This document shows positions 1 to 36,261 of a DNA stretch of 64,000 nucleotides, piece by piece. Within the stretch, counting starts at the first letter, position 1. The number at the start of each line of letters is the position of its first letter. The stretch lies in IMG/VR virus record IMGVR_UViG_3300042691_015660; one strand, given 5' to 3'. The stretch comes from a virus. Made by a program: the position numbers and the translations under genes. The notes under the pieces are model-generated. The model saw nothing but the letters and a program-made list of their open reading frames with translations, did no database searches and had not been told where the DNA came from.

Positions 1-660
1 AGTGAAAGTGCTTGGTGCTGCTTTACATGTCAATGGTTCTGTAGCACAAAACTGAATAATGAAAACTGCGGATTGATCTGTAACGTACAAAATAGTCACT
101 GTGTATACATGTGCGGATGTACACCAAGTTATATCTATCCAATGTGTTGCTATGCTAACTGCTGGGGATCACCATGCTGTGTAGCTGAAATGTGTGGCGG
201 AAACTATCGTACAGGACCACAACCTCATATTGCTAGAGGATTTGGTGGTGAAATTAACTGCTGCGGACATTTTAGCTGCGTGGCATTTATGGCCTGTAAT
301 CCAAATAATCCTTGTTGTATTACATCATATATTCCCGGACCTGCAGGTATGTTCAGCAGAGATGGTGTAGTTTTAGCTGTTTCTCATGAATATAATAACG
401 AATTTAGTAACTATAGTGGTCAAGGTCGTCATCAGCATAACTTTATGGTCAGTGCTGTAAGTCGTAATCCAAGCCAAGGTATACCATGGGCGTACTGCTG
501 GGGCTTTGGCGGCGGCTGTGGCTGTTACGAAGATTCAGGCTGTTATGCGTATGTTCCTCCAGGACATGGTGGTCACAATGCTGTATTTGAAGCAGGTGTA
601 AGAGACCAAGGCGGCAAAGGTGGAAATGCTGCAGTTAGAATTAAATTTATTGCGAGTTAA
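1..660 (+). CDS. Cys/Gly-rich putative virion (tail-fibre-associated) protein, paralog 1, 5'-truncated by window edge
   Basis: Frame is open from base 1 (SESAWCCFTCQWFC...); shares GPAG, NEFSNxSGQG, CGCYE and GGxxAVRIKF motifs with the next two ORFs. Confidence 0.75.
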   Translation, partial: SESAWCCFTCQWFCSTKLNNENCGLICNVQNSHCVYMCGCTPSYIYPMCCYANCWGSPCCVAEMCGGNYRTGPQPHIARGFGGEINCCGHFSCVAFMACNPNNPCCITSYIPGPAGMFSRDGVVLAVSHEYNNEFSNYSGQGRHQHNFMVSAVSRNPSQGIPWAYCWGFGGGCGCYEDSGCYAYVPPGHGGHNAVFEAGVRDQGGKGGNAAVRIKFIAS

Positions 661-663
661 TTA

Positions 664-1659
664 ATGCCAACGTCATTTACATCATTAGTTAGAGAAAGAT
701 TAGCTCAAGCTTTATTCGACGAAGAAAATCTTGAGCAAGGTAAAATTTGGATGTTCTCTGAACCTAATGTGAGAACCAAACAGTTTTGCTGCGTATGCTG
801 GCAAGCACCGTGTTGTGGTTGTGTAGTATTAGAAGTGTGGGGAGCAGGTGGCAGTGGTGCTCGTATGTGCTGTTGCGGCGGAGGCATTCCAGGTAATGCC
901 GGTGCTTATTCACGTAAGTGTTTTTGTGTACAAAGAGGTTGCTCGATCACAGGCTGTGTAGGGTTTGCCTGCGGTAACGCAGATGCTCTATGTTTTAGAG
1001 GTTGTAGCGAACCAACAGGCGTTTGCTGGTTTGGTAACGGCACCGCAGGATGTATCTGCGCTCAAGGCGGTCGTGGCGGCGCTAGTGTGTGCTCAACGGG
1101 TACTAGTTTATTCTGCTGTTTCTTCTTTTTTGGATACTGTGGAACACTAATTAATAGTAATTGTGGAGTTATTTGTAATTTTGGAGCAGGCGCCAACGGT
1201 GTCACAATCGCCAGTTGTTGTGCTCAAGCCTATGGCGGCGATGTAAATTGTTTTGGAAAATTCAGTTGTGCCGGATTCTACGGATGCTTGCCAAATTGTG
1301 TGTGTAGTCAAGTATATATGGTCACAGGACCTGCTGGATATTTTGGAACAGATGGTACCACATTACAATTTGGTACAGAAAATGATAACGAGTTTAGTAA
1401 CTGGTCTGGACAAGGTCACATGCAGTATATTCATGCGATGAATGTCGCCGGAAGAAATCCTGGACAAGGAATTCCAACAGAAAGTAAGTGTTGGACAGGC
1501 GGACGCAGTTGCGGTTGTTATGAAGCTCAAGGATGTATTGCTTGGCATCCACCAGGATTTCCAGGAATGGCTCCAAGTCCATGTGCTAACGTAAGAGATC
1601 ATGGAACACGTGGCGGCCCAGGTGCTATCAGAATTAAATTTATTGCGAGTACAGCATAA
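664..1659 (+). CDS. Cys/Gly-rich putative virion protein, paralog 2
   Basis: 331 aa with 37 Cys (counted); EVWGAGGSG...GGPGAIRIKF brackets typical of phage glycine-rich fibre domains. Confidence 0.75.
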   Translation: MPTSFTSLVRERLAQALFDEENLEQGKIWMFSEPNVRTKQFCCVCWQAPCCGCVVLEVWGAGGSGARMCCCGGGIPGNAGAYSRKCFCVQRGCSITGCVGFACGNADALCFRGCSEPTGVCWFGNGTAGCICAQGGRGGASVCSTGTSLFCCFFFFGYCGTLINSNCGVICNFGAGANGVTIASCCAQAYGGDVNCFGKFSCAGFYGCLPNCVCSQVYMVTGPAGYFGTDGTTLQFGTENDNEFSNWSGQGHMQYIHAMNVAGRNPGQGIPTESKCWTGGRSCGCYEAQGCIAWHPPGFPGMAPSPCANVRDHGTRGGPGAIRIKFIASTA

Positions 1660-2651
1660 TGCCAGTAACATTGACATCATTAGTTAAACAAAGATCTAAC
1701 TCTAATTGGGAAGGAGATATATCCGAAACCAATCTAGAAAAAGGACAAATTTTTGTATTTTCTCCTGGTAATGTGAGAACACCTTTTTGCGGTGGATTTT
1801 GTTGGCGTGCTCCTGGAACTGGTTGTGCTGTAATAGAAGTTTACGGAGCTGGCGGAAGTAGTAGTCGTATGTGTTGTTGCGGGTGGGGTATGCCTGGAAA
1901 CGCAGGTGCTTACGCTCGAAAATGTATATGTGTTACTGCCGGATGTTATGTCACTGGACAAATTGGCTTTAGTTGCGGTAATGCTGATACAATGTTCTTT
2001 AGAGGGTGCTCAGAAGCGACCTGTATTTGTTGGTTTGGTAATGGAACCAACGGGTGTATCTGCGCACAGGGCGGCCGTGCTGGCTGTAGTATTTGTGCTA
2101 CAGACGGTAACTGTGGCGGTTATTGCTGTTACAGATCAGTAGGCTATTGCGGAACTAACAATGGCATGGGTAATGGCATGGGTACTATATGTAATATAGG
2201 TACTACACAGAATTTTATAGCAACTGCCGTAGGCGGTGATTTAAATTGCTGCGGCGGAATAAGCTGTGTGACATTTAGTTGCAGTTGTCCAACTGCTTCT
2301 GGTCGTTGCTGTTATATGGTACATGTTCCAGGACCAGCAGGCGTATGGAGCTGTTGTAATACTCCGTATATTAGCTATACATTTACTGATGATGCTATGG
2401 AAGCTCCTATTCCAGGACAAGGCCTACATGGACTCATCGTAGGACTAAGTACTAGTCGTAATGGCACTAAAGGATCGCCTCATCCTTATAACTGGCGTTC
2501 AGATCGTATTTGCGGTTGTTATGAATCTACAGGATGTGTTCCTTATGTTCCGTACGGTTGGGGAGGCGCAGGACTTGCGTTCTGTGGCGATGTTAGAGAT
2601 AACGGAGTACGCGGTGGCCAGGGTGCTGTTAAGATAAGATTCTTTAGTTAA
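1659..2651 (+). CDS. Cys/Gly-rich putative virion protein, paralog 3
   Basis: Collinear with paralog 2 (NLEKGQI, EVYGAGGS, RMCCC, FRGCSE, CICAQGG, CGCYE); TAATG stop/start coupling. Confidence 0.75.
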   Translation: MPVTLTSLVKQRSNSNWEGDISETNLEKGQIFVFSPGNVRTPFCGGFCWRAPGTGCAVIEVYGAGGSSSRMCCCGWGMPGNAGAYARKCICVTAGCYVTGQIGFSCGNADTMFFRGCSEATCICWFGNGTNGCICAQGGRAGCSICATDGNCGGYCCYRSVGYCGTNNGMGNGMGTICNIGTTQNFIATAVGGDLNCCGGISCVTFSCSCPTASGRCCYMVHVPGPAGVWSCCNTPYISYTFTDDAMEAPIPGQGLHGLIVGLSTSRNGTKGSPHPYNWRSDRICGCYESTGCVPYVPYGWGGAGLAFCGDVRDNGVRGGQGAVKIRFFS

Positions 2652-2665
2652 TAACAGGAGTATAA

Positions 2666-3295
2666 ATGCGTAAATTTTTTACGTTTAAGATATCAGACGA
2701 ACCGTATAAAACAACTACTAATTTGAATAAAACTGTAGATGCTATATATGAAGGTCCAAAATTTTTAGCATTATGTATAGATATTTCAACAAATGAAATA
2801 AAATACATTGCAAGATCAGGAGAAACTGAAGAAGAACTTCAGTTAACTAACCTAATTGACGATGATCCTAATACCGAATTTATTGTTTTAGATGCTTCTG
2901 TCAAAACATTTGAAGCGGCATATCTTACAGGATATTACACTCATGATCCTATTCCGGATCATATAGAAACATTGCCAACTGGTGAAACTTGGACTTACAC
3001 ATTTTCCGGCGGCGGTATAACTCAGAATTATTTTGGTCAAGATATGTTTTACGTAAACGGAGAATTTACTACTCCTCGGTTTAGGGAACACGCTATAACA
3101 AGAGAAACTATGTTTTCGGGCATACAGAATACTATCAATATGATAAACAGTTCTTTAGCAAACAATGATTATAAACCCGAAGAACAACAAGCCATAGAAG
3201 AATACAAATCGTGGCTTAGTAATTTAGAAACTACTTATCCAAATATAGATCATTGGAAATTACCATTTCCGCCCAGTCCTCCAAGAATTTATTAA
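2666..3295 (+). CDS. Hypothetical protein, possible tail-fibre assembly chaperone
   Basis: AGGAG SD; follows fibre-like genes; C-terminal helical Y..WL..L...Y...W..FP pattern resembles fibre-assembly proteins. Confidence 0.5.
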   Translation: MRKFFTFKISDEPYKTTTNLNKTVDAIYEGPKFLALCIDISTNEIKYIARSGETEEELQLTNLIDDDPNTEFIVLDASVKTFEAAYLTGYYTHDPIPDHIETLPTGETWTYTFSGGGITQNYFGQDMFYVNGEFTTPRFREHAITRETMFSGIQNTINMINSSLANNDYKPEEQQAIEEYKSWLSNLETTYPNIDHWKLPFPPSPPRIY

Positions 3296-3299
3296 TCTC

Positions 3300-3328
3300 T
3301 TGACTCTTAATTAGTCTGGCGCTATTAT
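3300..3328 (+). promoter_or_regulatory. Sigma70-like promoter TTGACT-N17-TATTAT
   Basis: -35 at 3300-3305 and -10 at 3323-3328, upstream of the GT gene; overlaps inverted repeat 3313-3355. Confidence 0.5.
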
Positions 3329-3371
3329 ATTAAAAGATATATAATACGCTAGACTTTTTTACGAGGATTAA

Positions 3372-4310
3372 ATGACTAGATCCAAAGCATTTTTTATCAA
3401 TGGCGGCGCTGGCCGTGTCATCTGTGCGATTCCTGCTCTTGAAAAATACGAACAAGAGTCCGGCGACAAAGATTTTGTCATCGTCTGCGAAGGCGGTACA
3501 GACTTGTTCAAAGGACACCCAACATTAGATGACAGAACTTACGATGTCTGGCACAAAAACTTGTTCAAAGAAAAGATCCGAGATAGAGATGTAGTAAGTC
3601 CAGAACCTTATAGAATTTGGGAATACTATAATCAACATTGTAGTCTAGCGCAAGCGTTTGATATTGAAATTAACAAACAAGGTGTTAGAGAATTGCCTAA
3701 ACCAAATTTATTCTTGTCTAAGGAAGAAATGCTACATGGAAGACAAGTAGTTACCGAAATTAAAAAAACGTTAAAAAAAGAAAAATCGATAGTATTTCAA
3801 CCTTTCGGAAGAGGAATTCAATATATAGATGAAAGTTTTGTAGATCCTACTAGCCGAAGTATTGAGTATAAAGATGTAAAAGCATTAATTAGAAAATTAC
3901 AGGAAAATGGATATGCTGTAATTATGATGAGCGAATTAAAACTAGACCTTCGTGAAGAAAAATATAAAGATGATGTAGCAGCGCCTGAAAATGTTGGGCT
4001 AAGACAATGGGCGGCTATTATCAAGTACGCAGATCATTTCTTTGGTTGCGACAGCGTAGGGCAACATTTAGCTTATGCCATGAATAAGACATCCACAGTA
4101 GTTCTTGGTTCAACATATCCTATTAATGTTTCTTATCCTAATGTAAGTACTTTTAATATTTTAGATATGGGCGAAGAAACTAGAGAATACAGTCCAATAA
4201 GAATAGCACCAGATGAAAGAGTTGATCGTAAACATGAGCATATTATGAGTATGACTCCGGATATTCATGACTATGTGATTAATACAATTTTAGGAAAAAT
4301 AGAAAAATGA
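3372..4310 (+). CDS. GT-B fold glycosyltransferase, GT9 (heptosyltransferase)-like
   Basis: N-terminal GGAGRVICAIP; C-terminal LRQWAAIIKYADHFFGCDSVGQHLAYA matches the GT9 DSxxxHxAxA motif; GAGGA SD. Confidence 0.7.
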   Translation: MTRSKAFFINGGAGRVICAIPALEKYEQESGDKDFVIVCEGGTDLFKGHPTLDDRTYDVWHKNLFKEKIRDRDVVSPEPYRIWEYYNQHCSLAQAFDIEINKQGVRELPKPNLFLSKEEMLHGRQVVTEIKKTLKKEKSIVFQPFGRGIQYIDESFVDPTSRSIEYKDVKALIRKLQENGYAVIMMSELKLDLREEKYKDDVAAPENVGLRQWAAIIKYADHFFGCDSVGQHLAYAMNKTSTVVLGSTYPINVSYPNVSTFNILDMGEETREYSPIRIAPDERVDRKHEHIMSMTPDIHDYVINTILGKIEK

Positions 4311-6127
4311 CACTAGAGATACCAACAATAAATCTAAAAACAGGCTGGGTGGCAGCTATCGCTAGGGGCCATAATGCAGGAGTATGCCTACTTAAAGACG
4401 GAGAAATTGTTTTTAGCATAGAAGAAGAAAGATTAAGTAGACAAAAGTACGACGGCGGCCCTTATGCTAGTATGATGAAGATTTTAGAATATACAGATAA
4501 AATCGATTATCTTGTTATAGCGCATACTCAATCTTTACAAACTACAGCCGGTCGTGTGGATTATACTGGCGACGATGTCTATACTGGCTTGGCACGTAAA
4601 TTAAATTTAATTGATCGTAAAGCAAACTTACATAATCATCCGCAAGTAGTAGATTTTAGCTATATGCATCACAAACTTCATAGTGCTTGTGCTTTTTATC
4701 GAAGCGGGTGGACTGATGCTGTTAGTCTCATAGTTGACGGCGCTGGTACATTTATTCAAATACAATACGGAAATAATCCTATGACTATATGGGAAGTAGA
4801 AAGTATTGTAGATTGTGAATATCCTGCTAATTTTAAAACTCTATACAAACATTATGGAACCTTAGAACCAGTTCCCGGTATTCATTGGGAACAACTAGAA
4901 TCTGATAATTTTGGAGAACCAGGTCAATACCATGAAGCGCATCTAACTGATCGTGCTGGAATTGTTAAGGTCTATGAAGGAGTAACAGAATATTGTGGAT
5001 TTAGCAGTATTGAAGCAGGAAAAACTATGGGGTTATTTCCGTACGGAAAAGAAAATTCTTTTATTCCTAAATTGTTCGACACTAGCTCTAAAATTCCATT
5101 AAGTAATCGAAATTTAATTGTGCCTAATTACCCAAACGGATCAAAAGTTAATTCAGAATTATTTGAATTTTTAGATGAAAAAATTTCCGAAGATACTCCC
5201 GACGTCACTTATCTTCAAAGTCGTAGAGATCTTGCGTATGCTGTACAGACACAAACACAAGAGCAAGTGCTAAGACTAATTCGGAAAGCTGTAGAGATGA
5301 CCGGAAAAAATCGCGTGGTAATTAGCGGAGGATATGGATTAAATTGTGTAGCTAACTATTGGTATCTTGAACAATTGAAAGACGAAGGAATTGAAATTTA
5401 TGTAGAGCCTATTAGTAATGATGCTGGCACAGCCATGGGAGCAGCTTTATTATTTTGGCACGATGTTACTAAGAATTCAGAAATACAAAAACTAGATACA
5501 TTATATTTAGGACCTAAATACAAATATTCAGAAAAAGAAATTCTAGAAAAAGTGAATTATGCCGGCGGTGAAGTAATAGATGCCACTTATGAAGATGTAG
5601 TTGAATTATTATCGAAGAAGAATATTGTCAGCATGTTCCAAGGACGTAGTGAAAACGGCCCACGAGCACTAGGTAATCGTAGTATTCTGTTCGACCCAAC
5701 ATTTAAAGATGGTAAAGATTTTGTAAACATGGTTAAACGTCGAGAATACTTCCGTCCATTTGCTGGTACTATTTTACAAGACAAGGTACACGAATGGTTT
5801 GATCTTAGAGGCATGGATGAAAGTCCTCATATGATGTATGCTGTAAACTGCCAACCTGGTGTAGCAGAAAAAATACCTAGCGTAATACATGTAGACGGTA
5901 CTTGTAGAATCCAAACCGTTACACGAGAGCAAAACGCTCATTTCTACAACCTGATAGATGCTTTCTACACAAAAACAGGAATTCCTATCTTGTTTAATAC
6001 CAGCTTCAATTTAGGCGGTGATCCGTTAGTTGAAACCCTGGACGATGCTATTAGCACACTAATACGCAGCGATATCGAGTTTTTGTTCCTCCCAGAGTAC
6101 GGAAAATTAATAAAAATTTCTAACTAA
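4307..6127 (+). CDS. O-carbamoyltransferase, NodU/CmcH/TobZ family, full length
   Basis: GHN..EEERLSRxK, HHxxH, DGxG, GGxxLNCVAN, DAGTAMG, GPRALGNRS, KRREYFRPFA, HVDGTCRIQTV and NTSFN motifs. Confidence 0.93.
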   Translation: MTLEIPTINLKTGWVAAIARGHNAGVCLLKDGEIVFSIEEERLSRQKYDGGPYASMMKILEYTDKIDYLVIAHTQSLQTTAGRVDYTGDDVYTGLARKLNLIDRKANLHNHPQVVDFSYMHHKLHSACAFYRSGWTDAVSLIVDGAGTFIQIQYGNNPMTIWEVESIVDCEYPANFKTLYKHYGTLEPVPGIHWEQLESDNFGEPGQYHEAHLTDRAGIVKVYEGVTEYCGFSSIEAGKTMGLFPYGKENSFIPKLFDTSSKIPLSNRNLIVPNYPNGSKVNSELFEFLDEKISEDTPDVTYLQSRRDLAYAVQTQTQEQVLRLIRKAVEMTGKNRVVISGGYGLNCVANYWYLEQLKDEGIEIYVEPISNDAGTAMGAALLFWHDVTKNSEIQKLDTLYLGPKYKYSEKEILEKVNYAGGEVIDATYEDVVELLSKKNIVSMFQGRSENGPRALGNRSILFDPTFKDGKDFVNMVKRREYFRPFAGTILQDKVHEWFDLRGMDESPHMMYAVNCQPGVAEKIPSVIHVDGTCRIQTVTREQNAHFYNLIDAFYTKTGIPILFNTSFNLGGDPLVETLDDAISTLIRSDIEFLFLPEYGKLIKISN

Positions 6128-6134
6128 TCCTACA

Positions 6135-6184
6135 AATTCTGCCAGTATAACGATATGCTAAATATAGTTAATATTGGCAGAATT
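6135..6184 (+). promoter_or_regulatory. Inverted repeat enclosing a TAAATA late-promoter motif, ending 2 nt before ATG 6187
   Basis: AATTCTGCCA 6135-6144 pairs with TGGCAGAATT 6175-6184; TAAATA at 6159-6164 lies in the loop. Confidence 0.6.
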
Positions 6185-6186
6185 AC

Positions 6187-7311
6187 ATGTTAAACTTTCC
6201 TAGTTTTTTTGATCAAGGTGTCCATTCTACACTACGGTTAAAACCCGGTGTTAACTGGTCTCATAAAGGGCAATGGGTACAAATTTATAGTTCATTAAAT
6301 GTTGAAATTGACCGCTGGTACATTGGCGACTTTTCTAGCGTTTCTTATCAGGTTACAATAGAGTACGATAGTCACACAAAAGAAACTGTAAATTTATCAG
6401 TAGTTGCTACACAAAATAGTGTAAATTTAATAGACTACGGAAGAATTGGTACATTAGGTAAAATAGCAGATTTTTCAATTGACATTAATGACAGTTACGT
6501 ATCATTAAGAGCGAATCCAAGTCATATATCATATGACGGAGCACGAGTAATTTTTATTGCCGACTATGCTGAATCTATAAGTAGCCCTGTAGCAGCTTCT
6601 ATAACTAAAACAATTCAAGAAAGTAAATTTTATTCAGAATACGGATTTCAGACATCTGGATTTACTGTTGCCAATGGTACACTAAATGTAAATTCGTTAA
6701 ATTCTACAAACTTAACAGTAGGAACAAGCTTAACAGTAATTGGCGGAATTGTTACAATAACCAGCTCAGGCGGTGTAGGAAATATAGATAATGTAATAAT
6801 AGGAAGCATAACTCCAAGAGACGGAACATTCGTAGATTTGACCTCTACTAACACAGCATTTTTATCTGATGTGTTTGTAAACGGAAACGTTAATGCGAAT
6901 GCGTACGACAGCATAATAGATTTATCCCCAACAGGAAACGGAACACTTACCATTAATCCAAGTGTAGCGGGATCTATTAATAATATGACTATTGGTCTTA
7001 CTACTCCTAGACCCGCTACATTTACAATAACAAATACAACTTCATTAGTAAGCACTACAGGAACAATAACAACTTTAAATAGTACTAATGGTACTATAAC
7101 TACTTTAAATAGTACTACAGGAAATATTACTACAATTAATTCTACAACTATTACAGCAACAAACGTGACTATCAATAATAATTTAACAGTTGATAATGTT
7201 ACAGCAGACGAAGTTACAATTAATAATGCGCCTTCGGGCCCAAACAAAGCAACAAGAAAAGACTATGTTGACGCCACAGCAGCAGCATTAGCCATAGCAC
7301 TTGGCGGATAA
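6187..7311 (+). CDS. Virion structural / fibre protein with Thr-Asn-rich repeats
   Basis: GxIxNxxIG beta-repeats, GTITTLNST repeats, C-terminal ATRKDYVD..AAALAIALG motif common in phage fibre proteins. Confidence 0.65.
   Translation: MLNFPSFFDQGVHSTLRLKPGVNWSHKGQWVQIYSSLNVEIDRWYIGDFSSVSYQVTIEYDSHTKETVNLSVVATQNSVNLIDYGRIGTLGKIADFSIDINDSYVSLRANPSHISYDGARVIFIADYAESISSPVAASITKTIQESKFYSEYGFQTSGFTVANGTLNVNSLNSTNLTVGTSLTVIGGIVTITSSGGVGNIDNVIIGSITPRDGTFVDLTSTNTAFLSDVFVNGNVNANAYDSIIDLSPTGNGTLTINPSVAGSINNMTIGLTTPRPATFTITNTTSLVSTTGTITTLNSTNGTITTLNSTTGNITTINSTTITATNVTINNNLTVDNVTADEVTINNAPSGPNKATRKDYVDATAAALAIALGG
7060..7149 (+). repeat. Degenerate 30-bp tandem repeat x3 (GTITTLNSTN-like)
   Basis: ggaacaataacaactttaaatagtactaat / ggtactataactactttaaatagtactaca / ggaaatattactacaattaattctacaact. 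Confidence 0.75.
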
Positions 7312-7322
7312 CGGAGAACTAA

Positions 7323-10300
7323 ATGGCAAAGAAAAGAATTCAAAATTATGTATTTTTACCAGGTACCGCTAGTAGCAGTAATGCTTATCCTAATGCGTAT
7401 ACTTTACTTGTTAATAATAAATCTTTTATACAAAAAGAAGCTAATACTTACATTAGTAATAGTATAGCTACAGACACTGCGATTAATTTGAATCCTAACG
7501 CAATTGGATTATTAACTAACAATAAAGAATTTTTAAAGAAAGAAATTAGAGCGTACATAGCAGCTAGAGTAGCAGCTAGTAACGGTCCTTTCGCAGGCTA
7601 TACATATGATGCCGACAAGTGTGAAAGAGATGTTGGGTATGTCATTGATGCTTATATTTACGATTTAAGATACGGTGGTAATGAACAAATACGATATGTA
7701 GCAGAACAATATTGGTTAGGCGGTACTCCCCAAGTAGACGGAACCAGACAAGCAGAAATTTGGGCGCATACTAAGCTAAGAGATATTATAACCAAATATG
7801 TTTTTACTAGAAGTTTGTATCCTACAGAACAAGTAGCAGGAGTAGTTCAAAGCACAGTTGGTTCTGATGCTGAAACACACATGCAGCAAAGATTAAGTTC
7901 CTTATCAGAGGTACTACTAGATGTCATTACTAATGGATTAAGTGTTCTTGAAACTACTAATCTATACCCTAATGCTGCTAGTCTATTAACTAGAAATAAA
8001 GAATTCCTCAAAGACGAAATTACAGCATGGATAGCGACACAAGTAGCAGGAAATATTGCTCCATTTGTAGGGTTTACTTACGACGCATCTAAATGTAAAA
8101 GGGATGTTGGATATGTTATTGAAGCTTACATTTCAGATTTAAAAAACGGCGGAACAGAAAAAACAAGAGAAGCTGCTCAACAATATTGGTTAGGAGGAGT
8201 AGCTCAAGTAGACGGATCTAGAGCAGCCGAAGTAGCAGCACATACAAAACTAAGAGATATTATCGATGATTTTATCTTAGCAAAACTTCCTTATACTAGT
8301 GCGCAGAATCCAGTAGTTACTACTCAAGATGTATCTGGTAGTACTGCTGAAGCAGGAACTACGACTATTATTGCTACACTAGCTAGTGTTGTTATTAATA
8401 CCATTAATTCAGGCCTTATTGCTCTAACAAATTTAAATTTATATCCTAACGCTGCAACCTTATTAACTAACAATAAAGAATTCCTCAAAGACGAAATTAC
8501 AGCATGGATAGCGACACAAGTAGCAGGAAATATTGCTCCATTTGTAGGGTATACATATGACGCTGTTAAATGTAAAAGAGATGTAGGATATATTATTGAC
8601 GGATATATTTACGACATACGTTATGGAGGGAAAGAAGGAACTAGAGATTCAATAAGTCAATATTGGGTTGGTACTACTGCACAAGTTGACGGTAATAGAC
8701 TTCCAGAAGTAGCTGCGCATACTAAATTACGTGATATTATTAATAATAATATTTTACCTAAAGTAGCTTATAGCAGTGTTCAAAGTCCTGTTACTAGCAC
8801 ACAAAATCTGTCTGGATCAGCAGCTGAATCCGGCGTAACAGCAATAATAACCAGTCTAGCAAGTGTCGTTACTAGTGTAATAACCAACGGTCTAAATAGT
8901 TTACCTTTAGTACCAATTACTCAAAGTCTGCGAAACTTTTCGGGTTACGTGTATGACACTAGTAAATGCGAAAGAGATATCGGATATGTATTAGACGCTT
9001 ATGCCAATGATTTGCGATTTGGTGGAAATATAGAAACACGATTTGTAGCAAGTAGATACTGGGAATCGGGAGTTCCGCAAGTCGACGGCGACAGACGTCC
9101 GGAAATTAAAACTCACGAGTTTATTAGAGATTTAATTAATAGTTACATTTTTCCGCAGATTGCTTACACTCCCTTACAAGTTATAGTTTCAAGATACACA
9201 AATAATGGTATTACATATGAAACTGCTGCTAGTTCAAGAATTTATAATTTAGAAAATATTCTTACCACTGTGATAGAAAACGGTTTGTCTAGTATACCAG
9301 CAAGAAGTAACGGTGTAACGCAAATTAAGGTACAAGGAAAAATTAATCTTGAAGAAATACTATTAATTACTAATACAACTAATAATGAAATTCTTTATAA
9401 TTTTAGCAGCGCCGATTACGGAGCTGTAGTAGATTATTTTGACACATACAATAGTAACGGATTTAGTAGAGATGACGATTATCCAGCATTTCTCCAAACA
9501 GCAGATTATGTAACTACAATTACATTAGATATTGATACCAGTACTTGTAGTTCTTCGGATGATATACAAATTTTTGTAGAAAAGAACGAAATGACCATAC
9601 GTCCTTGGGACTTTGGTACAGATGCTATTGAACGTATGCGTGTAGCAACACCACAGTCTATGCTTGATGCTGACTTTGAATACGGGCTACAACCAACAAA
9701 ATGGCAAGCTATTGGATTGCTCAGACAATACCCAAGCGTATATGAAATTCCAGGAACAGATACTGCAGTTTCGACTGTAGTTACAGATGCCAGCGTAGGG
9801 ACAGGAAATGTTGGTGCTAGTTTGATTACAGTTACTACAGCAGGCCCACACGGTTTTACAGTAGGAACTCCGATTACAATTAAAGCACTAGCTAACACTA
9901 TCACTGGGTTCAGCAGAGCAGAAGGTACTTTCTTGGTCAATACTGTACCGACTTCTTCAACGTTTACTTACTATAGTGCTAGTAAAGTCGGAACATCAAA
10001 CGGTCAAGTTTTGGCTACTGCTTATACACAATTAAGAAAAGCTTCTTTTTATACAGGAGCTAGTTTAGGAACTCCTTCTTTTAGCATATATAGTCCAGGA
10101 AGTGCTGGAACAATTACTTCAGAGTTCATTACTACATCCGGGTCCGATCAAATAGCATTTATAGGAACTCCTCCTAGTATTGGTGCCCCGCTAACAGCTT
10201 CTGGAATTAATCCTGGAACACAGGTAACTGGTGTTGTTGGATCTGGCGGTGTAGCAGTACAGACTGGCGCTGCTTCTAGTGCTATAATAGGTGATACTAC

Positions 10301-13300
10301 TATAGAAGTAGAAAATGCCTCTGGTATTCTAGAAGGCATGGGTATCGATAATGGAACTGGAACAGCTATTTTTGTAACTGGCATATCAGGAACTACTGTT
10401 AGTTTAAGTGCTCCATTAGCTGCGCCTAAGATTGGTTCATCAGAAGTTTATACAGGCTTATCAGCTACACTTACTAATCCAATTGGTTCAGGTGCGACCT
10501 TTAACTTTGCTAGAGTAAACGGATCATATCAATATGTAGGTGTTGCTAATGGAGGATCGAACTATCTAGTAGGTGATAGAGTAAGAATTCTAGGAAGTCT
10601 ACTAGGCGGTAGTGATACTACAAACGATATTACTATTACAATTTTAAGTGTAGATAGCGGCGGGTCGGTTGCTAATGTTGACAGTTCGATTCCTATTGCA
10701 TTTTCAGGAACAAGTGTAAATGGATCAATAACCTATAGTCCTGTAAGTCAATCGACTACTACAGGATCAGGTATTAATAGTACTTGGAATGTAGTCAGAA
10801 GTGATACAGGAGATTCTTCAGCAGGCTTGTATTCTGTAACTAATATTAATCCAGGTAGTAATTTTAATCCTGGAGATCAAATTGTTATTACAGGCGATCT
10901 GCTAGGAGGATCAACACCTGAAAATGATTTGTTTATAAATGTTCAAACAGTGGGCGGGTTGGGAGAAATTTTAACATACGGAACATTGGGTAGTGCCTTA
11001 GGAACCGACACAGTGTTTACTAATTTGTCATGTAGTAATCTTTCTCATTCAGGAGTAGGCGCAGTATTTACAGTTTCTAGATTTGCAGGAGCGTATACTG
11101 CTACAATAACAAGTGGCGGCAGCAACTACAAAGTTGGCAATGTGCTAACTATCACTGGTAGCTCAGTTGGCGGAACAATACCAACTAATAACCTAACAAT
11201 GACTGTTACTCAGATAGACGGTGGAACTGGAGCCATTCAACTTGTGTTAGAATCAGGTAATGCTATATCTGGAAGTGTACTTGACTTTATTTCAGCAATA
11301 TCTTTGAGTGAAGTTACCATAGGAACTATAGCAGATGCTACTTCGATAGCGTATGCTGCTATTGCCGGTATTCAAGTAGATTTTACTACAGCACACGGAT
11401 TGGTTCCTGGAGCTAGCATCACTACATCTATTAATAGTAATGGAACTAATCACGGATATGCGGCAGGCCCATTTTTTGTAGAAAGTGTTCCAACACCAAC
11501 AAGAATTCGTTACACAGCAAGAACCAGCGGAACAATAGATACATCGACAATATCACTTACAGGAACGGTATACACACGATCAGATGCATACTTTATACAT
11601 AGGCCCTACGACGGCGGCGTACAGTTAGGAACTGGTGGTCCGCAGCATGGTGCTCAAGCAATTCGTATGAGTAAAAAATACATTCGTTATCAGTCAGGTA
11701 AAGGAGTAATGTACACTACTGGTGCGTTGTTTGCTCCTAGTTATGATTTACAAAGTTTAACAGCAACAGGAACTAGTATTGGTTCATACATCACCGTGGT
11801 CACCGATGATGTAGATCATGGATGCCAGATCGGCGGAGTAATCAAAATTAAAGGAGTTGTTACTTCTGGATATAACGGGGAGTATACTGTTACTGATATT
11901 ATTAATGAAAGACAATTTAGAATACAAGCACAAACTGTGTTAGGAAATGTCTATGCTACTCTATCAGGTCAAGCACAAATGAGTCTTGTGCGTTGGCACG
12001 GAGCTACTGTAAGGGCCGGCACGTTTGATGAACAAAATGGAATTTTTTGGCAATATGATGGTCAGACTTTAAGTGTTGGTAGAAGAACTAGTACATTCCA
12101 ATTAGCAGGCACAGTTAGTATAACTAGAGATACAAATTTAATTACAGGTACAAACACTAGATTTAGAGATCAGTTAAGTGCCGGCGATAAGATTGTTATT
12201 AAAGGCATGACTCATTGTGTTGCTAGTATAGACAGTCAAACAAGTATGACAGTGACTCCTGATTATCGAGGAGCTGTAGACGCAGTTAACAGCAAACTAT
12301 GTAAAGTTGAAGACATAATTATACCTCAGGACCAATTTAATTTAGACAGATTAGACGGCAATGGACCTAGCGGATATAATGTAGATACATCCACTATGCA
12401 GATGATTGGAATTCAATATACTTGGTATGGTGCGGGATTTATTGATTTTATGTTAAGAGGTAGCGACGGTAATTATGTTTTTGTTCACCGTATTAGAAAT
12501 AGTAATACTAATACTGAAGCTTATATGCGAACTGGTAACTTGCCGGTTAGATACGAAGTTATTAATGAAGGAGCCAGAGATAAATTAGCTAGTTCTATTA
12601 CATCTTCACAAACAACGATTCCGTTAACAGATGCTACCAACTTTCCAAACGAATCCGGAGTAGTATTAATAGATAACGAACTTGTTGCCTTTACAGGAAA
12701 GAGTGGAAATACACTAACAGGATGTACGAGAGCAGCACCTATGACTAATTTTGTAGCAGGAGCATCAAGAACATTTACAGCTGGGTCTGCAAATTCACAT
12801 GAATATAATACTGGAGTAGTGCTTGTTTCTAATACAGTAAGTCCTATTATTAGTCACTGGGGTAGTGCGTTCTTAACAGACGGAAGGTTCGACGAAGATC
12901 GCGGCTACTTGTTTAACTATGCTGCTACAAACGTTAGTATTTCGACAACTAAAAGAACAGCTTTTCTTATTAGACTAGCACCTAGTGTGAGTAATGCGAT
13001 TGTAGGAGATTTAGGGGAACGTGAGTTACTAAATCGTGCGCAATTGTTACTAAAGGGTATTGAAATTACAGCAGATAGTGGTACCGGCGGTATCGTTGTA
13101 GAAGGTGTACTAAATCCACAAAATTATCCCGTTAGCCCGTCAGATATTTCTTGGTCTGGATTACAAGGATCAGCACAAGGTGGCCAACCAAGTTTTAGTC
13201 AAATCGCACCTGGCGGTTCGGTAGTCTGGAGTTCAGCAGGCAGTACTTCTGCTACAGCTACTACATTAACATTTCCTACAGGATCTATTACAGCCAGAGC

Positions 13301-31283: not shown

Positions 31284-32243
31284 ATGGCAACTTTAGCTGA
31301 AATTAGAGCAAAATTAAAAGAGCAAGAAACCCGCAGCAGCGGCGAATCAAAAGGCGGAGATAATTCAATCTATCCGTTCTGGAACTTAAAAGAAGGTTCC
31401 GAATCTACAGTACGTTTCCTTCCAGACGGCAATAAAGATAATACTTTTTTCTGGGTAGAACGTTCCATGATCAAACTTCCTTTCGCAGGAATTAAAGGTC
31501 AAACAGAAAGTAAACAAGTCACAGTCAATGTTCCATGTATGGAAATGTATGGCGAAACTTGCCCCATCCTTAGTGAAGTCCGTGGCTGGTTTAAAGATCC
31601 TAGTCTCGAAGCACAAGGTCGTAAATATTGGAAAAAACGTAGTTATATCTTCCAAGGCTTTGTTGTCGAAGATGGTCTGAAAGAAGACGGTAAGCCAGAG
31701 AATCCAATTCGTCGATTCATAATTGGCCCACAAATTTTTCAACTGATTCGTTCAGCTCTGTTAGATCCAGAGATGGATGATTTGCCAACTGACGCTGTTA
31801 ACGGTGTCGACTTTAAACTAATCAAAACTAGTAAAGGCGGTTATGCTGACTATAGCACATCTAAGTGGAGTCGTCGTAGTCGTCCATTAGATGATAAAGA
31901 AGCAGCAGCATTAGAAGCACATGGCTTATTCGCATTGAAAGATTACTTGCCAAAGAAACCCACTGATGTAGAAATTAAAGTAATCAAAGAAATGTTTGAG
32001 GCTAGTGTCGACGGTGAGCCATTTGATATGGATCGTTGGGGGCAGTATTTTAAACCAGCAGGTACAAGTCAAGTAACCGGTGATCCTAATACTGCTAAGA
32101 CAGTGTCTAAAGCATCTGACGATGAAGTATATGACGACGAACCGGCTACTACACAATCTACAAGCAAACAAGAATCTTCAACATCTACATCTAGTAGTAA
32201 GGCAGAAGATATTCTTGCTATGATTCGTAACCGTCAAAAATAA
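31284..32243 (+). CDS. gp32: Single-stranded DNA binding protein, T4 gp32-like
   Basis: VRFLP, C.....CP, YWKKRSY, G.DF.L.K...GYADY..SKW, acidic/Ser tail; AGGAG SD. Confidence 0.9.
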   Translation: MATLAEIRAKLKEQETRSSGESKGGDNSIYPFWNLKEGSESTVRFLPDGNKDNTFFWVERSMIKLPFAGIKGQTESKQVTVNVPCMEMYGETCPILSEVRGWFKDPSLEAQGRKYWKKRSYIFQGFVVEDGLKEDGKPENPIRRFIIGPQIFQLIRSALLDPEMDDLPTDAVNGVDFKLIKTSKGGYADYSTSKWSRRSRPLDDKEAAALEAHGLFALKDYLPKKPTDVEIKVIKEMFEASVDGEPFDMDRWGQYFKPAGTSQVTGDPNTAKTVSKASDDEVYDDEPATTQSTSKQESSTSTSSSKAEDILAMIRNRQK

Positions 32244-32281: not shown

Positions 32282-33040
32282 ATGGATTGGAAACGAATCG
32301 AAGAGGCGCAATGGAAATTGCGCCAACATCCCTTAACAGCTAGACAAAGTATTGGTTGCCTTGAAGATTTAAAGGTCTTCATGGAAAACCATGTCTATGC
32401 TGTTTGGGATTTCATGTGTTTAACAAAACAACTTCAAAAGCATCTGGCTCCTAGTGGTAGTCCATGGATTCCGAAGTATTCGGGCGAGTCTCGAAGATGG
32501 ATAAATGAAATCGTATTAGGAGAGGAAAGCGATATTGCGTTTGACGGTAACGGTTATCTAAGTCATTTTGAATCATACATAGCAGCAATGGATGAAATAA
32601 AAATAGACACATCATGGATAAAAAACTGGCCTACTTTAGTTGATACTATCGGCTGGGATAACGCATTAAAGCATCCTCGTGTACCGAAACCAGCACAGTA
32701 TTTTATGACACAAACAAAAAGTTTTATAGACAGTGATAAACCATGGATTGTATGTGCTGCTCTTGCGCTAGGTAGAGAAGATTTACTACCAGAGCAATTT
32801 AATTCTGTATTAATTCAATTAAATGGTGCTGAAATTCCGTCGACTATTTTTAAATGGTATCTTGCCAGACATGTGGAAATTGATAGTAATGAACATGGAC
32901 CCGCTTCTAGAAAATTATTAGATGAGTTATGTGAAAAAAACCCTATCCGAGAACAAGAAGCAACGGAAGCAGCGTTATTAGCTATTAAGGCAAGAGAAAA
33001 ATACTGGGATTTAATTATTCAATTAAATTATACTACATAA
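32282..33040 (+). CDS. DUF3050 heme-oxygenase-like diiron oxidase (HDO superfamily)
   Basis: FMENHVYAVWDFM, INEIVLGEESD, SHFESY, GREDL and YLARHVEID..EHGP ligand motifs. Confidence 0.85.
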   Translation: MDWKRIEEAQWKLRQHPLTARQSIGCLEDLKVFMENHVYAVWDFMCLTKQLQKHLAPSGSPWIPKYSGESRRWINEIVLGEESDIAFDGNGYLSHFESYIAAMDEIKIDTSWIKNWPTLVDTIGWDNALKHPRVPKPAQYFMTQTKSFIDSDKPWIVCAALALGREDLLPEQFNSVLIQLNGAEIPSTIFKWYLARHVEIDSNEHGPASRKLLDELCEKNPIREQEATEAALLAIKAREKYWDLIIQLNYTT

Positions 33041-34461
33041 TGGCAAATGTAATTCTTTATAGTCAAATAGGCCACAGACCAATGATTTGGAGGCCTATTG
33101 CGTGTTATACATTAGCTAGGTGGATAGAAGAACACGGGTATACTTGTCAAGTTATAGAATTTACTCATCTTTTTAGCCCAAGAGAACTTATCGAATATAC
33201 TGAAATGTTTATAGATAAAGACACCTTACTCGTAGGTGTTAGTAGTACTATGTGGACTAATTATGATGCTAATTTATTAATGAGACACGCTGCTATCAAT
33301 GTTCCAGAAAATATAGATGTGGCTATTAAAGAAATTAAATCAAAGTATCCTAAAATTAAAACTGCTATTGGCGGAGCTGGACAATATGTAAAAGGAACAA
33401 AGATTTTTGATTATCATGTGGTAGATCATTTTGGAGAAAACAGTTTATTAAAAATTTTAGACGAACTAACTAAAAAAAGTATATCGACAAAATTACAACG
33501 TAAAAATTTCTCAATTGAACATCAAAGATTTGTTTATAAAGACCATGATTGTGTATTACCAGGAGAATGTTTACCTATAGAGTGGGGCAGAGGTTGTATT
33601 TTTCAATGTCCTTTTTGTAGAGATCCTAATTTAGGAAAACGTCCAGGAACAGACGAAAAAGATATTAGTTTAATGATAGATGAGTTCACTGAGATGTATG
33701 AAAAGTTTGGTACAACGTCTTACTATTTTTTAGATGAAACATTTAATGCTAATACAGACAGGTTAGAAAATTTGTTAAAAGTTTATGATAAACTACCTTT
33801 TAAATTAGAATTTCTTAGTTATAATAGAGCAGACTTACTAGATAAAAATCCTCACACTCAAGAAATTTTACATAATTGCGGGCAACGAGGAGCATTATTT
33901 GGAATAGAAACATTTCATACCGAAGCAGCAAAAGCTATCGCTAAACCATGGAGTGCTAAAAGAGGAAAAGACTTTCTTATCGAGATACAAGAAAAATGGA
34001 AAAACACTCACATCGATTGCCACTTTATAGCAGGATTACCTGGAGAGTCTGAAGAACATTTATTTTCTACAGCAGAGTGGCTTAAACAATCAAATTTAGG
34101 ATTTTTTTGGTTCATACCTTTATTATTAAATCATAATGAAAGGTATGGAGTTTGGGAAAAAAATTCTTTAAAAGAAGGAGTTACTTGGCCTGATCCTAAT
34201 TACAATTTACATTGGGAAAGAGGTGATTGGTCCTGGATTAAAGCGTATAATGTGTCAGCGAAACTTAATAGATATGTAGATGCGCAGTCTCGAATGGCTA
34301 TGTGGAGTTTAGGCCCAATTAAGACATTAGGATTAGATTTTGATAATATAGTAAACAAATCGTTTAATGAAATTTTTGATCAAGCAGGAGATTTATATGA
34401 TCATGAGGAAAGACTTTTCGATCACTACAAAGAACTATTAAAGTCACAGGCAGGTAGATAA
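33040..34461 (+). CDS. Radical SAM enzyme with N-terminal B12-binding-like domain
   Basis: GRGCIFQCPFC (CxxxCxxC), FLDETFN, GIETF, FIAGLPGE; N-terminal P.....LA......G....VI.F; TAATG coupling to the HDO gene. Confidence 0.88.
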   Translation: MANVILYSQIGHRPMIWRPIACYTLARWIEEHGYTCQVIEFTHLFSPRELIEYTEMFIDKDTLLVGVSSTMWTNYDANLLMRHAAINVPENIDVAIKEIKSKYPKIKTAIGGAGQYVKGTKIFDYHVVDHFGENSLLKILDELTKKSISTKLQRKNFSIEHQRFVYKDHDCVLPGECLPIEWGRGCIFQCPFCRDPNLGKRPGTDEKDISLMIDEFTEMYEKFGTTSYYFLDETFNANTDRLENLLKVYDKLPFKLEFLSYNRADLLDKNPHTQEILHNCGQRGALFGIETFHTEAAKAIAKPWSAKRGKDFLIEIQEKWKNTHIDCHFIAGLPGESEEHLFSTAEWLKQSNLGFFWFIPLLLNHNERYGVWEKNSLKEGVTWPDPNYNLHWERGDWSWIKAYNVSAKLNRYVDAQSRMAMWSLGPIKTLGLDFDNIVNKSFNEIFDQAGDLYDHEERLFDHYKELLKSQAGR

Positions 34462-34470
34462 TCAATTACT

Positions 34471-34499
34471 TTGACAGGCAACAATTATTAATTTAATAT
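34471..34499 (+). promoter_or_regulatory. Sigma70-like promoter TTGACA-N17-TAATAT
   Basis: Perfect -35 upstream of uvsX; AAGGA SD follows. Confidence 0.55.
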
Positions 34500-34518: not shown

Positions 34519-35568
34519 ATGGCAAAAGCATTCGACTTAACAAAATTTCGCAAAACACTCACAAAGAGTATTGATGGTCTCGGTGTAGGGTTCAATGATC
34601 CTACAGATTGGATTAGCACAGGAAATTATGCTCTAAACTATCTAATTAGTGGCGATTTTAATAAAGGAATCCCATTAGGTAAAGTAACTGTGTTTGCTGG
34701 TGAATCAGGAGCAGGCAAAAGCTATATCTGTTCTGGTAACATTGTAAGACACGCACAAGAGCAAGGTATCTATGTTATTCTAGTTGATAGCGAAAATGCT
34801 CTTGATGAAAAATGGCTTCATGCTCTAGGAGTTGATACGAACGAGGATAAACTCTTAAAACTGAACATGGCAATGATTGATGATGTTGCTAAGACAATTA
34901 ATGAGTTCATGAAAGAATATAAGACTATGGAAGATCGTCCAAAAGTTTTATTTGTTATTGATAGTTTAGGAATGTTACTTACGCCTACAGATGTTAATCA
35001 ATTTGAAGCAGGAGACTTAAAAGGTGATATGGGTAGAAAGCCAAAGGCACTTACGGCGTTGGTTCGTAACTGTGTTAATATGTTTGGTAGTGCTAATGTC
35101 GGTCTTATCGCTACAAATCACACGTATGCTAGTCAAGATATGTTCGACCCTGATGATAAAATTTCAGGTGGACAAGGATTCATTTACGCAAGTTCTATCG
35201 TGGTTGCCATGAAAAAACTTAAACTTAAAGAAGATGAAGACGGCAATAAGATTTCAGAAGTTCGTGGTATTCGTGCTGCTTGTAAGGTAATGAAAACACG
35301 TTATGCTAAACCTTTTGAAAGTGTACAAGTTAAGATTCCTTATGAAACAGGTATGAATCCTTATAGTGGGCTAGTAGACTTATCTGAAGCAAAAGGCTTA
35401 CTTAAAAAGGATGGAAATAGACTCTCATTCACTACAAATGATGGAGAAATTATTAAATATTATCGCAAAGAATGGGAACGTAACGACGAAGGATGTTTAG
35501 ATAAAGTTATGGCAGACTTTGCTAATTATAAACCAACTGGAATCGAGGAGCTAGTAGAAGATGAATGA
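34519..35568 (+). CDS. uvsX: RecA-like recombinase UvsX
   Basis: GESGAGKS Walker A, DSENA, VIDSLG, DMG, NHTY, SGG. Confidence 0.95.
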   Translation: MAKAFDLTKFRKTLTKSIDGLGVGFNDPTDWISTGNYALNYLISGDFNKGIPLGKVTVFAGESGAGKSYICSGNIVRHAQEQGIYVILVDSENALDEKWLHALGVDTNEDKLLKLNMAMIDDVAKTINEFMKEYKTMEDRPKVLFVIDSLGMLLTPTDVNQFEAGDLKGDMGRKPKALTALVRNCVNMFGSANVGLIATNHTYASQDMFDPDDKISGGQGFIYASSIVVAMKKLKLKEDEDGNKISEVRGIRAACKVMKTRYAKPFESVQVKIPYETGMNPYSGLVDLSEAKGLLKKDGNRLSFTTNDGEIIKYYRKEWERNDEGCLDKVMADFANYKPTGIEELVEDE

Positions 35569-35808: not shown

Positions 35809-36261
35809 ATGTGGTATTCTAAAGTAAGTAAAGATATATCGTATATTCCTGACGCTGTAGCGTATTTTGAAGTCGAATTATTGGCAGCAAAAAATGATAG
35901 CCGCATAGCGGGAAATATAGAAAAGGCAGCTGCCAATATGCCTGGAATTGTGGAACAACGATATAGTCAACTTCAAGAAATTGAAGCTATATTAGAATAT
36001 CTTAATATAGAATTGCGCCGTTTGAAAAGTCAGCATTTCCGTAAATATCTTGAGAATTATCAAAGAGCGTTGAGCTCGCGGGATTGCGAGAAGTATGTTG
36101 ATGGTGAAGCAGACGTAGTTGATTTTGAAAAGATTATCAACGAGTTTGCTTTACTACGTAACAAATGGCTAGGTATAACGAAATCACTAGATATTAAACA
36201 GTGGCAATTAAGTAATATTATCAAATTACGTGTAGCCGGAATGGAAGACGCATCTTTATAA
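35809..36261 (+). CDS. uvsY: Recombination mediator UvsY-like
   Basis: Helical; YVDGEAD and K.LD.KQWQLSNIIKLR.AG C-terminus; synteny with uvsX. Confidence 0.78.
   Translation: MWYSKVSKDISYIPDAVAYFEVELLAAKNDSRIAGNIEKAAANMPGIVEQRYSQLQEIEAILEYLNIELRRLKSQHFRKYLENYQRALSSRDCEKYVDGEADVVDFEKIINEFALLRNKWLGITKSLDIKQWQLSNIIKLRVAGMEDASL

Follow-up and report, generated by a model that had tools for sequence, protein, structure and literature searches.

The window analysed here, a stretch of 64,000 nucleotides of viral DNA (IMG/VR virus record IMGVR_UViG_3300042691_015660), carries two enzyme genes in tandem on its plus strand. The first of them (gene 1, 32282..33040, 252 amino acids) encodes an oxidase of the DUF3050/HamA type, which belongs to the heme-oxygenase-like di-metal oxidases (HDO) and falls into a viral clade. 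The second one (gene 2, 33040..34461, 473 amino acids) encodes a radical S-adenosylmethionine (SAM) enzyme (rSAM) of a virus-specific family, for which a class-B (cobalamin-type) architecture is predicted. As stated in an earlier note on this DNA, the two reading frames meet in a TAATG motif (33038..33042, plus strand), in which a single base is common to stop and start codon, and this overlap predicts translational coupling. On the same strand, the gene of a gp32-type single-stranded DNA binding protein (31284..32243; phrog_1192, E 2.5e-60; PF08804) ends 38 bp upstream of gene 1 and the gene of the UvsX recombinase (34519..35568; phrog_97, E 1.7e-69; PF00154) begins 57 bp downstream of gene 2. 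The gene of UvsY (35809..36261; phrog_231) follows downstream of uvsX. Over its entire length the window is syntenic with the initial 61 kb of IMGVR_UViG_3300042350_002797 (G001; 364,554 bp, CheckV 100% complete), at 70–75% identity of the nucleotides, and thus, it derives from a jumbo phage of about 360 kb. Genome-wide statements in this paper were taken from this complete relative. As detailed below, the oxidase and the rSAM form a real and conserved cassette, which is co-inherited and has co-diversified in three deep viral clades.

The assignment of gene 1 to DUF3050, already made in the earlier note, was confirmed by the PF11251 profile (newer Pfam name HamA_HO-like; E 1.8e-69, 234.4 bits at a cut-off of 22.2). 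The match covered positions 2–233 of the 233 profile positions and gene 1 was confirmed as a full-length DUF3050/HamA-type heme-oxygenase-like oxidase. When PDB sequences were searched, the crystal structure of HamA (9VWB), the only member of the family with a solved structure, was matched with an E-value of 1.2e-43. The AlphaFold2 model of gene 1 (predicted local distance difference test, pLDDT, 93.9) was superimposed by Foldseek on the same structure (34% identity) with a template modelling (TM) score of 0.85 and a root-mean-square deviation of 2.2 Å, and CADD, HrmI, PqqC, UndA, RohS and BesC were the next matches. In alignments of 18 and 42 DUF3050 members, E81, H95, E166, H197, D201 and H205 were invariant. 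These residues constitute the classical set of three histidines and three carboxylates of the HDOs (E, H, E, HxxxDxxxH), their positions were aligned to E84, H96 and H199 of HamA, and the metal ligands are therefore intact, as had been claimed before. H37, R165 and R238 were also invariant and are equivalent to the proposed 2-oxoglutarate-binding residues of HamA. A bilin/heme-oxygenase reading of DUF3050, prompted by the heme-oxygenase-like fold, was rejected because the full di-metal ligand set is present; it is also opposed by the fact that in G001 a canonical heme oxygenase (PF01126, E 5.6e-20) is already encoded next to a bilin reductase. Among the rare longer DUF3050 proteins, P0203 (557 amino acids, NCBI source) and P0202 are putative fusions with ketopantoate hydroxymethyltransferase (PF02548) or DUF420.

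The DUF3050 family comprises MgoB, PvfA and HamA, which come from the mgo, pvf and ham clusters, among its members (PMC3298696; PMC11659414). HamA was reported to be a mono-iron, 2-oxoglutarate-dependent enzyme, which oxidizes N-hydroxy-valine tethered to the HamD carrier domain (PMC12522199). On this point the literature disagrees, since other HDOs are described as di-iron enzymes, although UndA was likewise first seen with one iron (PMC13108848). As the HamA paper reports a mono-iron enzyme, di-iron chemistry of the phage oxidase stays a prediction from its ligand residues, and this speaks against taking the di-iron mechanism for granted. The phage oxidase shares with the proteins of Burkholderia and Pseudomonas (HamA, PvfA, MgoB) the Pfam family, the fold, the metal-ligand residues and the proposed co-substrate residues. 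However, the bacterial proteins have a nonribosomal peptide synthetase and an AurF-like N-oxygenase as partners, with which they act on valine bound to a carrier (PMC12522199, PMC11659414), whereas the phage oxidase falls into a viral clade of its own, remote from the Pseudomonas loci, and has an rSAM as partner. Neither a nonribosomal peptide synthetase (PvfC/HamD) nor an AurF-like N-oxygenase (PvfB/HamC) was found as its neighbor; it lies beside gp32 and UvsX. The phage oxidase is thus a member of the DUF3050/HamA family outside pvf-, ham- and mgo-type clusters.

Gene 2 was recognized by the Radical_SAM profile (PF04055; E 2.3e-10, 41.3 bits at a cut-off of 29.5), and its CxxxCxxC motif (C186, C190, C193) was invariant in 59 homologues. 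This triad comprises the only invariant cysteines of the family. Since the N-terminal domain does not carry any conserved cysteine, a MiaB/RimO-type auxiliary iron-sulfur cluster was excluded. Foldseek ranked TsrM, OxsB, CysS, MgmA and TokK at the top for the AlphaFold2 model of gene 2 (pLDDT 94.1, predicted TM score 0.91). When residues 1–451 were compared by VIA-align, the highest Z-score was obtained for OxsB (21.8), followed by TsrM (21.2), CysS (20.6) and MgmA (20.5), and Z-scores of 19–20 were calculated for MiaB/RimO. With OxsB, TsrM, CysS, TokK and MgmA (Z-scores of 16–22 over residues 1–451) the model of gene 2 appears to share a three-part architecture, which consists of an N-terminal Rossmann-like domain, a radical SAM barrel with the CxxxCxxC motif and a C-terminal helical domain, but the degree of amino acid identity is only 12–15%. 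A sequence search of the PDB with gene 2 did not yield a match, and tblastn against 50,697 cultured-phage records did not retrieve any homologue either. The nearest ESM Atlas clusters were 100% viral and the family is essentially viral.

The earlier note had classified gene 2 as a B12-type rSAM. This classification holds at the level of the modelled architecture, but the cobalamin-binding domain (PF02310) was not detected in gene 2 by the Pfam profile search. It was detected in some distant homologues (P0058, P0060, P0064, P0066), which share about 30% identity, and in the family alignment of the N-terminal domain G66, S68, G111 and G112 are conserved. In NCBIfam, gene 2 had sub-threshold matches to PhpK, the ladderane-lipid rSAM, HpnJ, BzaD and the glutamine methylase of methyl-coenzyme M reductase (MCR), all of which are B12-binding rSAM families. 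The best score amounted to 65.5 bits (cut-off 600) and the remaining ones were also far below their cut-offs, so that gene 2 does not belong to any named B12-rSAM equivalog. Moreover, the B12-independent AprD4 (Z-score 21.0) matches gene 2 as well as the B12 enzymes do. This similarity counts against a firm assignment of the cofactor and cobalamin dependence is thus a prediction. The term B12-type appears right as a description of the modelled architecture and it is the fold that suggests the use of the cofactor.

IMG/VR was scanned with profiles, and we found at least 524 stretches with the rSAM family and at least 110 with DUF3050. The gene order gp32-DUF3050-rSAM-uvsX-uvsY is present in about 20 contigs of close relatives (IMG/VR and metagenome). 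The pair also occurs in other genomic settings, as in L063 (49% identity for the oxidase, 40% for the rSAM), in L064 (44% and 28%), where the two genes are convergent, and in L072 (42% and 31%). Outside the clade of the window we counted 39 viral DUF3050 groups (non-redundant at 90%), and in 16 of them a member of the gene 2 rSAM family directly adjoins the oxidase gene. Three gene orders were observed (oxidase then rSAM, rSAM then oxidase, convergent), and same-strand pairs of other clades mostly overlap or abut (from a 4-nucleotide overlap to a 2-nucleotide gap). None of the sampled loci has a member of the rSAM family within 8 kb of a viral DUF3050 gene without direct adjacency. In 17 further groups of the 39, DUF3050 is paired with three SPASM/Fer4_12 radical SAMs and a 356-amino acid protein.

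Phylogenetic trees of the two families mirror each other. In the rSAM tree (83 groups, 48 of which lack DUF3050), the DUF3050-adjacent members are located in three well-supported clades (9 of 11, 16 of 17 and 4 of 4 rows). Mapping DUF3050 adjacency on this tree required five changes, compared with a mean of 24 after shuffling, and so low a number was reached in none of the 500 shuffles. The DUF3050 tree (120 rows) contains the same three clades and one SPASM-linked clade. One of its branches (support 87) separates all viral rows and two rSAM-linked bacterial rows from 74 bacterial rows without rSAM. These two bacterial rows, a Bdellovibrionaceae metagenome-assembled genome and Enhygromyxa salina, are the only carriers of the pair among the 80 closest bacterial species genomes, and their sequences branch inside the viral DUF3050 group. 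The possibility that the two genes never co-occur elsewhere, which the earlier note had raised, is contradicted by the presence of the pair in three deep viral clades and two bacterial genomes. For the two cassette genes dN/dS ratios (nonsynonymous over synonymous substitutions) of 0.07–0.12 were calculated (0.08–0.12 for gene 1, 0.07–0.12 for gene 2), compared with 0.03–0.11 for gp32 and uvsX, which indicates purifying selection. At the Enhygromyxa locus (L215, Enhygromyxa salina DSM 15201, 3631–11835), the guanine-plus-cytosine content of the pair is 0.62, its surroundings reach 0.67–0.69 and two AsnB-like genes precede the pair. Both this locus and that of the Bdellovibrionaceae genome (L214) carry a JmjC-type cupin and both organisms are predatory-type bacteria.

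Some observations argue against a strict partnership. Six close relatives (L020, L029–L033) have the order gp32-DUF3050-uvsX, from which the rSAM gene is cleanly absent. Since some close relatives have lost the rSAM copy, pairing is not strictly obligatory at the gp32-uvsX locus. In addition, the lineage of the window has an rSAM paralogue of 55% identity elsewhere (263.0–264.4 kb in G001), and no DUF3050-rSAM fusion was found among five longer DUF3050 proteins, which is a weak negative. In G001 the paralogue is followed by a second class-B-like rSAM gene and a GATase-like gene, and a paralogue of this type could substitute for the lost rSAM copy in the six relatives. In IMGVR_UViG_3300027782_004013 the single DUF3050 gene abuts an rSAM of the 55%-paralogue type, which is followed by a second one (rSAM2). 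This arrangement suggests that an ancestral DUF3050-rSAM-rSAM2 trio gave rise to the gp32-uvsX cassette through duplication. All points considered, we regard functional coupling of DUF3050 and rSAM as highly probable. Co-occurrence and co-diversification in three viral clades bear out the functionally linked two-enzyme cassette that the earlier note had proposed.

Ralstonia jumbo phages RP12 and RP31 (ORF076-080 cluster) were the only DUF3050 carriers among the cultured-phage records. Like in the window, their viral DUF3050 gene (35% identity to gene 1) lies directly beside radical SAM genes, but the partners are three SPASM/Fer4_12 radical SAMs and a 382-amino acid protein rather than a class-B-type enzyme. 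The SPASM rSAMs of RP12 were rejected as homologues of gene 2, since there was no similarity beyond the cluster motif. In the published paper on RP12, radical SAM appears a single time. This second viral context of DUF3050 comprises a 322-amino acid protein, three SPASM/Fer4_12 rSAMs, a 356-amino acid protein, DUF3050, an open reading frame (ORF) of 110 amino acids and large ORFs without Pfam matches. It was seen in 17 non-redundant viral groups (L157, L163, L172, L178, L179, L185 and others), in RP12 (L002, 1–5732) and in RP31.

Literature searches did not retrieve any paper on phage DUF3050 or on DUF3050-rSAM pairing (none of the seven papers in which DUF3050 occurs deals with phages), and searches on jumbo phages and radical SAM enzymes yielded nothing relevant. 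Phages are not mentioned in the HDO review of 2026 that was searched, and the B12-radical SAM review of the same year mentions neither phages nor viruses. This agrees with the statement of the earlier note that no phage system with this pair has been described, and the pair joins members of known superfamilies in a previously undescribed combination. Both superfamilies are sources of unusual chemistry, such as the formation of N–N bonds and of olefins and methylation at unactivated carbon or phosphorus, and viruses are not known to use either of them as a tool. OxsB, a class B radical SAM enzyme, requires a partner protein (OxsA) encoded beside the OxsB gene. UndA, an HDO, and UndB, a member of the FA_desaturase family, perform the same oxidative chemistry on fatty acids. 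The OxsB-OxsA and UndA/UndB cases parallel the HDO or FA_desaturase neighbors of the viral rSAM family, but OxsA is an HD-domain protein without homology to the phage partner oxidase.

What the cassette might do can be outlined as follows. A HamA/PvfA-type oxidase and a dedicated rSAM with class-B architecture would form one cassette, which jumbo phages would carry and pass on as a single unit, and the two enzymes would act consecutively, possibly as a complex, on one substrate. The rSAM would functionalize an unactivated carbon, most likely by cobalamin-dependent methylation, and the O2-dependent step of the oxidase would be an oxygenation, a desaturation or a decarboxylation. The substrate may be a hydrophobic acyl or aminoacyl group, either lipid-bound or tethered to a phosphopantetheine carrier, and could be supplied by the phage's own island of acyl carrier protein (ACP), AcpS, ketosynthase, FabA-like and fatty-acid-desaturase genes. 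Consecutive action of the cassette on one substrate, most likely an acyl or carrier-bound one, is the explanation that accounts best for the data as a whole, and we propose it tentatively, at somewhat less than an even chance. The substrate class itself (carrier-bound acyl or lipid-like) we put forward with equal or slightly greater reserve.

Several lines of evidence lead in this direction. G001 encodes two ACPs and the phosphopantetheinyl transferase AcpS (PF01648, E 6.6e-20). In addition, it has a ketosynthase, a FabA-like dehydratase, a Rieske protein and, across the genome, six paralogues of FA_desaturase, some of which are arranged in tandem. Except for two of the desaturases, this fatty-acid/polyketide-like set is located at 229–242 kb (L055, L056) and includes several unannotated proteins. 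In IMGVR_UViG_3300027782_004013, the DUF3050-rSAM-rSAM2 trio is situated inside that ACP/ketosynthase island, between a gene for a 435-amino acid protein and two desaturases. FA_desaturase genes flank the pair on both sides in L064, an FA_hydroxylase and a short-chain dehydrogenase/reductase lie beside it in L154, and a PP-binding protein directly follows one of the paralogous rSAMs. At 16 of the 37 loci of the rSAM family without DUF3050, FA_desaturase genes are present within 8 kb, in up to eight copies. The structural neighbors CysS and TokK were crystallized with pantetheinylated substrates, HamA, CysS and TokK all act on phosphopantetheine-linked substrates, and the weak NCBIfam matches of gene 2 include B12-rSAMs of lipid metabolism (ladderane, HpnJ). 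As a separate observation, at about 8–9.5 kb of locus L120 (IMGVR_UViG_3300042484_002676) an rSAM paralogue stands amid eight FA_desaturase-family genes within 8 kb, which for a viral contig is an extreme expansion of di-iron enzymes of the membrane type.

Other data do not fit as well and weaken the case for a lipid or carrier-bound substrate. Beside the DUF3050-linked pairs there is no enrichment of FA_desaturase genes (4 of 44 loci), unlike beside the rSAM paralogues without DUF3050, and such genes were also present in three of the five control viral records without the class-B pair. In the window the neighbors of the pair are DNA recombination genes, the lipid/ACP island is known from the relative G001, where it is more than 200 kb away from the pair, and the commonest context in clade II is primase/helicase. 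The context favors a lipid or carrier-bound substrate over the signal, anti-defence, nucleotide or protein options that the earlier note had listed. If this is true, such phages would remodel host membranes or make metabolites of their own by a largely self-encoded pathway. A more far-reaching proposal, which we consider doubtful, describes a jumbo-phage two-component system, in which the virus-specific HamA-like oxidase would live in obligate partnership, possibly in a complex, with a cobalamin-type rSAM (a SPASM enzyme in the sister clade). By combining O2 and radical chemistry on one substrate, it would produce, in the course of infection, a lipid, a cofactor or a signalling/anti-defence metabolite of a new, phage-made class. 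Since the virus-specific DUF3050 clade is almost always found beside rSAM genes, it offers a defined point of access to what jumbo phages can do metabolically, and the pair may help to settle the debated function of the HamA/PvfA family.

The SPASM-linked sister clade brings a peptide or a protein into consideration as substrate. Here, the rSAM would methylate or cross-link a virion protein or a product resembling peptides that are made by ribosomes and modified after translation (RiPP), and the oxidase would hydroxylate or oxidize it, in analogy to PqqE/PqqC and to the MCR-modifying B12-rSAMs. In that clade (14–17 groups, including RP12) the viral DUF3050 follows three SPASM rSAMs, which are usually peptide-acting, the best structural matches of the rSAM include MgmA and TsrM, and PqqC is a fold neighbor of the oxidase. 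There are also weak NCBIfam matches to RiPP C-methyltransferases, and the cupins at both bacterial loci, together with the AsnB-like genes at one of them, could be interpreted in the same way. However, the gaps of 38 and 57 bp leave no room for a precursor-peptide ORF beside the window pair, neither a RiPP recognition element nor a peptide-binding domain was detected, and the wider rSAM family associates with desaturases instead of peptide machinery, so that we rate this alternative as rather unlikely. Less probable again is modification of a nucleotide or of the phage DNA (hypermodified base or sugar), even though it would explain why the pair is placed among genes of replication and recombination. 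DNA-metabolism genes surround the pair in two independent clades, here between gp32 and uvsX and in six clade-II groups in the order DUF3050-rSAM-primase-x-x-DnaB helicase, with phosphoribosyl pyrophosphate synthetase upstream in two of them; ThyX adjoins the pair in L154. The top VIA match (Z-score 21.8) is OxsB, whose substrates are deoxyadenosine phosphates, but the Z-scores do not separate OxsB from TsrM, AprD4 and CysS. Any early-expressed accessory gene typically sits among early genes, the pair has no conserved transglycosylase, kinase or DNA-binding partner, and its other contexts are lipid-like or mixed.

The adjacency of viral DUF3050 to two unrelated rSAM subclasses (class-B-like and SPASM) might also mean that the oxidase is an accessory to the rSAMs, which would consume O2 or would repair or load metal centers and thereby protect clusters that are sensitive to oxygen when the host is aerobic. 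Radical SAM genes are unusually numerous in these phages (eight matches in G001), but each genome has a single DUF3050 copy, which lies next to one of the eight rSAMs. Furthermore, DUF3050 co-diversifies with three particular rSAM clades and 48 of the 83 groups of the rSAM family do without it, the substrate/co-substrate residues of HamA (H37, R165, R238) are invariant and the bacterial DUF3050 homologues work without rSAM partners. Taken together, these data make an accessory role improbable. Another explanation would be that two unrelated accessory genes share a common insertion hot spot without any functional link. DUF3050 without rSAM in some relatives and rSAM paralogues without DUF3050 elsewhere are compatible with such a scenario, but adjacency has been kept over three deep clades, three gene orders and many contexts, the clades are mirrored in both trees and stop/start overlaps are common. 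We therefore consider a chance association very improbable indeed.

The window DNA is similar to that of jumbo myoviruses such as PA5oct, RaK2 and Atu_ph07 (about 67% across gp32 and uvsX). In PA5oct and in contig L177, gp32 and uvsX adjoin each other, and the DUF3050-rSAM cassette is therefore an insertion between these two genes, which confirms that the pair interrupts the gp32-uvsX-uvsY block, as had been noted before. L177 (IMGVR_UViG_3300044701_003953, 71–8753), a related contig of 207 kb, has a lone DUF3050 gene about 5 kb downstream of the adjacent gp32 and uvsX, after uvsY and a cytidylyltransferase-like gene. Because of this position, the oxidase occupies different slots of the gp32-uvsX block across lineages. 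PA5oct (L001, NC_071039.1, 3970–6976) has a split uvsX: the 81-amino acid gp276 matches UvsX residues 1–65 with 74% identity and is followed by the 477-amino acid gp275, which has no Pfam match, and by the remaining part of UvsX (gp274). Thus, gp275 looks like an insertion (mobile element or intron-like) within uvsX. This 477-amino acid ORF between gp32 and uvsX was rejected as an rSAM homologue (BLASTP E 0.59, no Pfam match). Identity of the window phage with the recently described amoC-phages was also rejected, since AmoC was absent from five related viral records.

The earlier note had assigned uvsX a promoter of its own. Across the region, sigma70-like matches are not in excess (20 seen, 21 expected). 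The strongest plus-strand match of the region (TTGACA-17-TAATAT, 34471..34499, 10 of 12 consensus positions) is situated inside the 57-bp gap between the rSAM gene and uvsX; it is a consensus match only. As a minor observation, an island at 257–272 kb of G001 (L003, L057) comprises the canonical heme oxygenase together with a ferredoxin-dependent bilin reductase, and a phage of the G001 type could make its own bilin. The island also encodes two FA_desaturases and two class-B-like radical SAMs, besides PstS, a phosphate porin and a GATase-like protein.

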